A stretch of DNA of 64,000 nt from a virus. Its lineage: Duplodnaviria > Caudoviricetes. Below the pieces are notes generated by a model. It was given only the letters and a program-made list of their open reading frames with translations. It was not told the origin of the DNA and did no database searches. Where the stretch lies: IMG/VR virus record IMGVR_UViG_3300025413_001239; one strand, 5' to 3'. A program made the position numbers and the translations under genes. How positions within the stretch are numbered: position 1 is the first letter of the stretch; each line of letters opens with the position of its first letter. Positions 43,806-43,972 of this stretch are shown here, in pieces.

Positions 43806-43972
43806 TGGTAGGTGATGAAATTAGGAATTATATTCCGATGGCAGACATGCCCAATTGTCTCTTGGGTGGTGATAACGAGATAGATAAACAATACAGGGTT
43901 GACCACTAGCTTGCAAGCGTTAATGTTGTTTATTGAATCGCACCGTGGATGGTTCGAATCCTCCTCTACCAG
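43806..43972 (+). ncRNA. 167-nt tRNA-like RNA (GTC loop, D-loop insertion, 80-nt extra arm)
   Basis: TGGTAGG/TCTACCA acceptor, TTCGAAT T-loop, CCCAA-TTGTCTC-TTGGG arm. Confidence 0.7.

Follow-up and report, generated by a model that had tools for sequence, protein, structure and literature searches.

The YrlA Y RNAs (RF02553), which occur in bacteria and phages, are tRNA mimics with D and T arms that are circularly permuted, with a closed acceptor hairpin, and carry a 5' GNCGAAN0-1G Ro motif (PMC4201824). Serine tRNAs of the allo-tRNA type are known from phages (PMC5389517); these have an 8/4 or 9/3 branch, a long D stem with a tetraloop, a long arm and G73, with GUC among their anticodons, and are found in phage tRNA clusters. 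In the indirect pathway, tRNA-Asn is made with a non-discriminating AspRS and GatCAB, as in Thermus, Deinococcus and Bdellovibrio (PMC1635274, PMC4206432). Amidation by GatCAB is promoted by U1-A72 and prevented by G1-C72 and U20a (PMC1635274), and an extra D-loop base at 20a blocks it in the GatCABs studied (PMC1635274, PMC2811023), while the strong aspartate determinants for AspRS are G73, G34, U35, C36 and C38, with G2-C71 as a minor one (PMC9976931). Bacteroidetes genera with GatCAB, AsnRS and one AspRS, and with neither AsnA nor AsnB, have been listed (PMC4206432); their means of making asparagine has so far been explained by assuming a non-discriminating AspRS (PMC4206432).

The window analysed here (the whole stretch of DNA, 64,000 nucleotides of a Caudoviricetes virus, IMG/VR record IMGVR_UViG_3300025413_001239) is jumbo-phage-like, and its tRNA cluster lies at approximately 40.8-46.6 kb. 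Within it lies a 167-nt element (Table 1), which is a real, conserved, oversized tRNA-shaped RNA that looks unfit for codon reading. The original prediction had described a canonical acceptor, a hairpin in the D loop, an anticodon-like loop with a pyrimidine at position 37 and an 80-nt extra arm containing a 10-bp helix, and all of these were found where it had placed them. The 10-bp helix (43884-43893/43924-43933, with one G-U pair) had been given a single cap; its tip was instead found to consist of a UUGA-loop hairpin with a bulged A and a separate, perfect 10-nt palindrome. The D-loop hairpin, although present here, is an optional feature seen only in phage copies; it is a perfect palindrome in most of them and imperfect in the window copy.

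From its base, the variable arm consists of a 4-bp helix, a bulge, a 3-bp helix, an A-rich internal loop (43879-43883 with 43934-43937), the 10-bp helix and the branched tip. The adenines of the internal loop are invariant in the alignment described below, and the loop appears to resemble an S-turn. The anticodon loop is of 7 nt (43855-43861) and has both U33 and U37. In the window G73 (43972) is followed by C74 and then AA; CCA is therefore not encoded and must be added, and a C directly follows G73 in 320 of 322 family members.

Table 1. Positions of the RNA, its parts and the candidate promoter element in the window
Feature	Position	Strand	Basis or remark
Bacteroidota-type promoter -7 element (assumed identity), upstream of the tRNA cluster	43297..43305	+	9-nt motif count
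Whole RNA, U1 to discriminator G73	43806..43972	+	Family model, 137 bits; C74 at 43973
Acceptor stem, 5' strand, 7 bp (partner 43965-43971)	43806..43812	+	U1-A72, G2-C71
D arm, class II tRNA-Leu type	43813..43849	+	3-bp stem, A15 pairing with U48, G18-G19, extra base 20a
D-loop insertion, 18 nt, holding a 5-bp hairpin (43824-43836)	43822..43839	+	Optional in the family
Anticodon arm: GUC 43857-43859 (34-36), U37 43860, C38 43861	43850..43866	+	Covarying 5-bp stem; loop tallies
Variable arm, 80 nt	43867..43946	+	Helices 4-6 of the covariation analysis; U48 at 43946
Tip hairpin: two G-C pairs, UUGA loop, bulged A	43896..43906	+	Conserved within one subfamily only
Perfect 10-nt palindrome, candidate dimerisation site	43909..43918	+	Computed duplex versus hairpin energies
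T arm, canonical T loop, one bulged U in the stem	43947..43964	+	Sequence; covariation helix 9

The window RNA was called neither by ARAGORN nor by Rfam 15 (gathering thresholds; E up to 10), and ARAGORN run with introns at a relaxed threshold returned noise only. Folded as a single sequence, it was no better than its shuffles (z -1.0), so the evidence for structure is comparative. The first homologues were found at loci retrieved via two neighbouring proteins, the RNA being present in six other contigs; viral contigs were then scanned by sequence patterns, one of them anticodon-free. These scans yielded 104 distinct full-length giant-arm phage homologues of 141-170 nt. In an alignment of 86 sequences 96.4% of cells were paired and double-sided changes were observed in 32 of 39 pairs, a result matched by none of 500 shuffles (slid controls, 42-54%). 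All seven acceptor pairs covaried, the 5' and 3' ends forming the acceptor stem, and A15/U48 was invariant. The helices of the extra arm also covaried across the 86 sequences; the arm is conserved, one of the points on which the original prediction had staked its reading.

When the tip motif was dropped from the pattern, the same core was found with arms of about 18 to 140 nt; the tip motif thus marks a subfamily (tip hairpin in 71 of 161 host and 108 of 161 phage copies). ARAGORN labels the short-arm members, which are about 90 nt long, as tRNA-Asp. In total the family comprises more than 100 distinct phage copies and approximately 160 chromosomal copies in Bacteroidota. Its phage carriers include the jumbo-phage relatives of the window and at least one distinct phage group with its own gene set. 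The core pattern matched in more than 120 genome contigs; the 80 matches listed were all in Bacteroidota (Pedobacter, Chitinophaga, Algoriphagus, Spirosoma, Saprospiraceae and others), some as tandem copies, and pattern counts are lower bounds, the fixed pattern having caught just 6 of 15 carriers detected by the model. No relative was found among cultured GenBank phages, nor was a published description of the RNA family found in the literature searched, a body in which subscription journals were mostly outside coverage. The family is outside every catalogued family tested. In Persicobacter diffluens (L324 6521-7240) the RNA is present in five tandem copies and tRNA-Asn in seven.

Among known RNAs, class II tRNA-Leu (RF00005) shares the D-arm pattern, A15-U48 and the geometry of the arm base, and it alone was cross-scored by the family model (at most 59 bits, versus at least 84 for typical members). 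The RNA differs from it in having G73 rather than A73, an Asp-type loop with U37 and an arm of up to five times the length that contains an internal loop and ends in a branched tip. With tRNA-Asp(GUC) it has G34, U35, C36, C38, G73 and G2-C71 in common, but U1-A72 replaces G1-C72, U37 replaces a purine, C33 is frequent and the arm is long. Identity bases were tallied in 322 copies, 161 each from hosts and phages. U1-A72 was present in 160 host and 153 phage copies (313/322), G2-C71 in all 161 host and 157 phage copies (318/322) and G73 in 320 of the 322, and all five strong aspartate determinants, together with G2-C71 and U1-A72, were near-invariant. The loop reads Y-Y-G-U-C-U-C in most members; GUC and, in part, U37 and C38 were built into the search patterns, whereas the acceptor pairs and G73 were not selected, and true members retrieved with the anticodon-free pattern still had GUC. 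Among the 104 giant-arm phage copies, U37 was found in 103 and C33 in 38.

Measured against a decoding tRNA-Asp, therefore, the RNA has the determinants for AspRS but lacks U33 combined with a purine at 37, G1-C72 and a short variable loop. Approximately 20 phage loci hold a normal tRNA-Asp besides the RNA, which rules it out as a replacement for the phage's tRNA-Asp. An anticodon intron inserted at 37/38 was likewise ruled out, as the 3' stem strand directly follows the loop and covaries; the insert sits in the variable region and shows a continuous range of lengths, which is not the arrangement of an intron-containing tRNA. The covarying arm, the directly closed stem, U37, C33 and the coexisting tRNA-Asp all favour a tRNA-scaffolded functional RNA over a decoder, as had been proposed. 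Family members carry A20a, and do not therefore have the D loop without an extra base at 20a that marks a GatCAB substrate; the 20a rule against amidation may not hold in Bacteroidota, however, since their own tRNA-Asn (L548-L562) has U20a.

In 75 of approximately 120 host loci the divergent neighbour of the RNA was one and the same regulator, an orthologue of AsnC. Its best family was AsnC (E 4e-50, next 2e-22), with a score below the curated cut-off; its best PDB match was E. coli AsnC (E 3e-35), and the recognition helix and the YTTG-x-YS loop are kept. The pair of AsnC and RNA is maintained across orders despite different flanking genes; as the flanks differ and the downstream genes vary, the RNA is a stand-alone gene. 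E. coli AsnC switches on asnA when asparagine is low, and we take the E. coli asnC-asnA divergon (AsnC structure 2cg4) as the appropriate comparison: in both cases AsnC is divergent from a single partner, which here is an RNA gene rather than a synthetase. The host RNA gene occupies the place of an asparagine-making enzyme.

Co-distribution was assessed in 111 Bacteroidia genomes, 20 of which carry the RNA. An AsnC orthologue was present in 20/20 carriers, compared to 8/91 non-carriers, and was directly divergent from the RNA in 18. The genomes are related, so that the following P values overstate independence: gatB was present in 20/20 carriers and the RNA in 0/27 gatB-negative genomes (P =0.003); true AsnB was found in 13/111 genomes and in no carrier (P =0.12, not significant alone); and among genomes with AsnC the RNA and AsnB were mutually exclusive (P =6e-4), 5 of the 8 AsnC-positive genomes lacking the RNA having AsnB and one of the remainder a degenerate short copy. 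The tally of 84 gatB-positive genomes takes in one unpublished genome (G225), counted only as positive for gatB and negative for the RNA, on which no conclusion rests. In a sample of the phylum gatB was present in 15/15 carriers, and AsnA in 4 genomes, all non-carriers. The broad AsnB family TIGR01536 matched 3 of 5 carriers and the specific AsnB model none of 20; the TIGR01536 matches in carriers were taken as AsnB paralogues. A degenerate short-arm relative (L567; G230 C23:55338-55413) has an AUC loop and keeps U1-A72 and G73, in a genome with AsnC and gatB and no full copy of the RNA. No AsnC or AspRS gene was found within the 215 phage loci carrying the RNA. The phage copy is probably derived from Bacteroidota hosts.

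Five named carriers were found to have AsnRS, GlnRS and one bacterial AspRS each; as AsnRS and GlnRS are present, GatCAB has no obvious translational job there. GlnRS was absent from 12 gatB-positive non-carriers, the GatCAB of which is thus explained otherwise, and also from 7 of 13 carriers tested, which rules out a strict coupling of the RNA to GlnRS. An archaeal-type second AspRS was found in none of 43 genomes. In alignments with PDB sequences the AspRSs of carriers read RDLG, RDKG or RKFG and so resemble those of E. coli and Thermus, which are discriminating; only three GatB-AspRS fusions read RDHG, as an Asp/Asn enzyme in the PDB does. The His signature (His31) marks AspRS of the Asp/Asn type and is an imperfect predictor; the housekeeping AspRSs of non-carriers share the non-His signature, which consequently neither separates carriers from non-carriers nor proves discrimination. 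The fusions (L572-L574; approximately 1110 aa, with the His signature) follow gatA in three Bacteroidia genomes without the RNA, and were found in 0/20 carriers. AsnA/AsnB, the GatB-AspRS fusion and the RNA thus form three routes which do not overlap in the Bacteroidia sample; most of the remaining genomes have none of the three. Host tRNA-Asn keeps U1-A72, and normal tRNA-Asp and tRNA-Asn are both present.

Like the tRNA-Asn of the indirect pathway, the RNA has U1-A72 and G73 and co-occurs with GatCAB in genomes with AsnRS and without AsnA or AsnB; unlike it, the RNA has GUC rather than GUU, U37, a class II body, an arm of 18-140 nt and a gene of its own beside asnC, would use a discriminating AspRS and would not feed the ribosome. 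The reading that we favour, for and against which we find the chances evenly balanced, is that of a host-derived, non-decoding carrier on which AspRS would place aspartate and GatCAB would amidate it to asparagine off the ribosome. The biochemical steps are all ones that we infer from the structure, conservation, identity bases, gene linkage and co-distribution observed. The RNA would be transcribed with the phage tRNA cluster, and trimmed and supplied with CCA by host enzymes. The single host AspRS, apparently discriminating, would read GUC, C38, G73 and G2-C71 and load aspartate; GatCAB would then recognise U1-A72 and convert the aspartate to asparagine on the RNA. U37, the frequent C33 and the giant arm would bar decoding, such that Asp codons would not be misread, and asparagine would be set free for AsnRS. 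In cells, AsnC probably turns the RNA on at low asparagine, and the phage copy would add a supply of asparagine outside AsnC control. A wider version of this is more tentative: that the RNA gene stands in for an asparagine synthetase, an AsnC-controlled non-decoding tRNA derivative yielding free asparagine with a discriminating AspRS and GatCAB, and that it serves phages as an auxiliary metabolic RNA which they have refitted with palindromes on several occasions, making it dimerise or oligomerise.

Several points stand against the carrier. A metagenome scan for transcripts ending in CCA brought up DNA contigs only. Steric conflict is possible between the giant variable arm and AspRS or the tail of GatB (PMC2811023); the base at 20a, joined in the window copy by the 18-nt D-loop insert, is unfavourable to amidation; asparagine has no known mechanism of release; and 64 gatB-positive genomes of the 111 have no RNA, the asparagine source of most of them being unexplained. 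The use made of the RNA by phages could also differ from that made by hosts.

Varied GC-rich perfect palindromes mark the phage copies, both at the tip of the arm and within the D-loop insert. Of 108 phage copies, 86 contain a perfect palindrome of at least 6 nt in the 14-nt stretch that follows the tip hairpin, against 9 of 71 host copies; shuffling of the phage copies gave 19 (maximum 30). Following clustering at 75% identity, a self-complementary 4-nt core was present in 22 of 34 phage representatives, and of seven kinds, where approximately 1 in 16 is expected of ordinary hairpin loops. Of the 17 phage-like copies in a metagenome set that had been held out, 16 carried palindromes of varied sequence, GC-rich for the most part, and 9 had D-loop inserts; the AsnC-adjacent copies of this set had no D-loop insert, and a palindrome in 16 of 32, which was one AT-rich sequence in 14 of the 16. 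The D-loop inserts were palindromic in 34 of 47 cases. For the 14-nt tip segment of the window RNA the computed energies were -19.1 kcal/mol as a duplex and -1.5 kcal/mol as a hairpin. As the sequence changes and yet self-complementarity is kept, intermolecular pairing is suggested, and the palindromes probably make the phage RNA dimerise.

Other functions of the RNA were weighed against the carrier. It is unlikely that it acts as a scaffold or regulator in the same pathway, either bridging AspRS and GatCAB (or shifting AspRS specificity) and thereby enabling the charging and amidation of ordinary tRNA-Asn, or sequestering both enzymes as an AsnC-controlled sensor. The AsnC, gatB and AsnB patterns would be accounted for equally, with no need of a release step; U1-A72 is kept in host tRNA-Asn, as this would have it, and the conserved internal loop and self-pairing tips would fit as docking parts. 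However, an acceptor stem that covaries and is paired throughout, followed by G73 and C74, looks retained for charging, and the existence of short-arm members indicates that the big arm is dispensable. A phage decoy, which as a dimer would soak up the host's anticodon nucleases or tRNA-sensing defences in a role unrelated to asparagine, is distinctly unlikely: the AspRS and GatCAB marks are the same in phage copies as in host copies, most phage loci have no RNA-repair genes close to the RNA and the D-loop hairpin could equally be neutral, even if phage copies differ from those of hosts (GC-rich palindromes, D-loop inserts, more C33) and the window also encodes RNA ligases, a kinase/phosphodiesterase and other odd tRNAs.

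Decoding is very unlikely, whether the amidated RNA were to serve Asn codons with C36 looped out (pairing through G34-U35-U37) or to read Asp codons as an odd tRNA-Asp. That U37 is near-invariant, rather than any pyrimidine, does fit a G-U-U register, the release step would be avoided and the ARAGORN label of short-arm members agrees; but the purine 3' of the anticodon is absent, C33 occurs in more than one third of the phage copies with a giant arm, a normal tRNA-Asp and a normal tRNA-Asn are available, the degenerate copy in one AsnC genome has an AUC loop, and we know of no precedent for such a register. Recognition by SerRS as a serine missense suppressor, in the manner of allo-tRNAs, would be suited by the long arm, G73, G2-C71 and U3-A70, and GUC is common among allo-tRNA anticodons (PMC5389517). 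This is highly improbable given the 7/5 acceptor branch, the Leu-type D arm (3-bp stem, large loop) and arm base, U1-A72 and the single fixed anticodon loop with C38 where allo-tRNAs vary, and the AsnC link would be left unexplained. A Y RNA partnering the phage DUF2828/DUF7788 (TROVE-like) protein, close to the Ro link originally suggested, is scarcely credible. The gene for that protein does lie 8-10 kb upstream, within the tRNA and RNA-repair region, but the protein matches neither Pfam TROVE nor solved Ro60 by sequence, its gene is near the RNA only in close relatives of the window, and no linkage was seen in other phages or in hosts. No Ro60/TROVE gene was found within approximately 4 kb of the RNA, and TROVE was present in 1 of 5 carrier genomes. 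Unlike YrlA, the RNA is unpermuted, with an open acceptor end and an intact anticodon arm; the YrlA Ro motif GNCGAAN0-1G is absent from the window copy and was found, at any position, in just 5 of 322 members, and RF02553 gave no match at the RNA coordinates up to E 10. TTGACC, which the original prediction had likened to the Y-RNA 3'-strand motif, is inside a local hairpin. Its pairing with the D arm as a Y-RNA stem was rejected, as the 5' strand of the D stem covaries with its own 3' strand and not with the invariant motif. The non-decoding tRNA scaffold of the original prediction is thus supported and its link to Y RNA and Ro is not; it had overlooked the aspartate identity bases and, in hosts, the connection with AsnC and GatCAB.

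If the carrier reading were true, it would explain asparagine supply in the many Bacteroidota with GatCAB, AsnRS and one AspRS but no asparagine synthetase; it would give tRNA-like RNAs a new job, that of a cofactor used repeatedly in the synthesis of a free amino acid, and phages an auxiliary metabolic gene that is an RNA. Annotation is affected as well, Rfam being blind to the family and ARAGORN missing the long forms and labelling the short ones tRNA-Asp.

A 9-nt motif, which we take to be the Bacteroidota promoter -7 element, occurs in 13 copies in the window, all on the + strand, compared to 1.6 expected (0 of 100 shuffles), and its enrichment points to a Bacteroidota host. The copy approximately 500 nt upstream of the RNA (Table 1) likely drives its transcript. 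Directly upstream of the RNA is a tRNA-Trp(CCA) (43695-43797, +) with a class II D arm and a variable arm of approximately 28 nt, copies of which, 91-98% identical, are present in L002, L004 and L047. Three further elements were missed by ARAGORN: a second Sec-like tRNA-Ser(UGA) with a long D stem (approximately 44017-44100, +), an 8/4 tRNA-Ser(GCU) of the allo-tRNA type with an 8-bp acceptor and a 4-bp T stem (44128-44217, +), and a tmRNA (40834-41186, +; 46.1 bits against the Rfam cut-off of 47); relatives, called as tmRNA or permuted tmRNA, carry a tag that ends in ELAVA. Before the first tRNA-Met, approximately 350 nt (41860-42210) contain no ORF, are GC-richer and have several possible hairpins, possibly representing a structured RNA.

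Two HNH endonuclease genes lie within the tRNA cluster (44711-45486 and 45877-46480). After each comes a partial copy of the tRNA upstream of it (Asn-GUU and Arg-UCU), which overlaps the end of the gene. The RNA-repair set (48299-51610 and 54776-55609) comprises a kinase/cyclic phosphodiesterase, a T4 Rnl1-type ligase and a second RNA ligase; the Rnl1-type ligase is in two ORFs (49682-50272 and 50648-51610) with a split intein region between them. The DUF2828/DUF7788 gene (33751-36115) is also in two pieces, 33751-34239 and 35021-36115, separated by a 241-aa ORF on the opposite strand (34223-34948) that is probably a mobile intron/endonuclease insertion.
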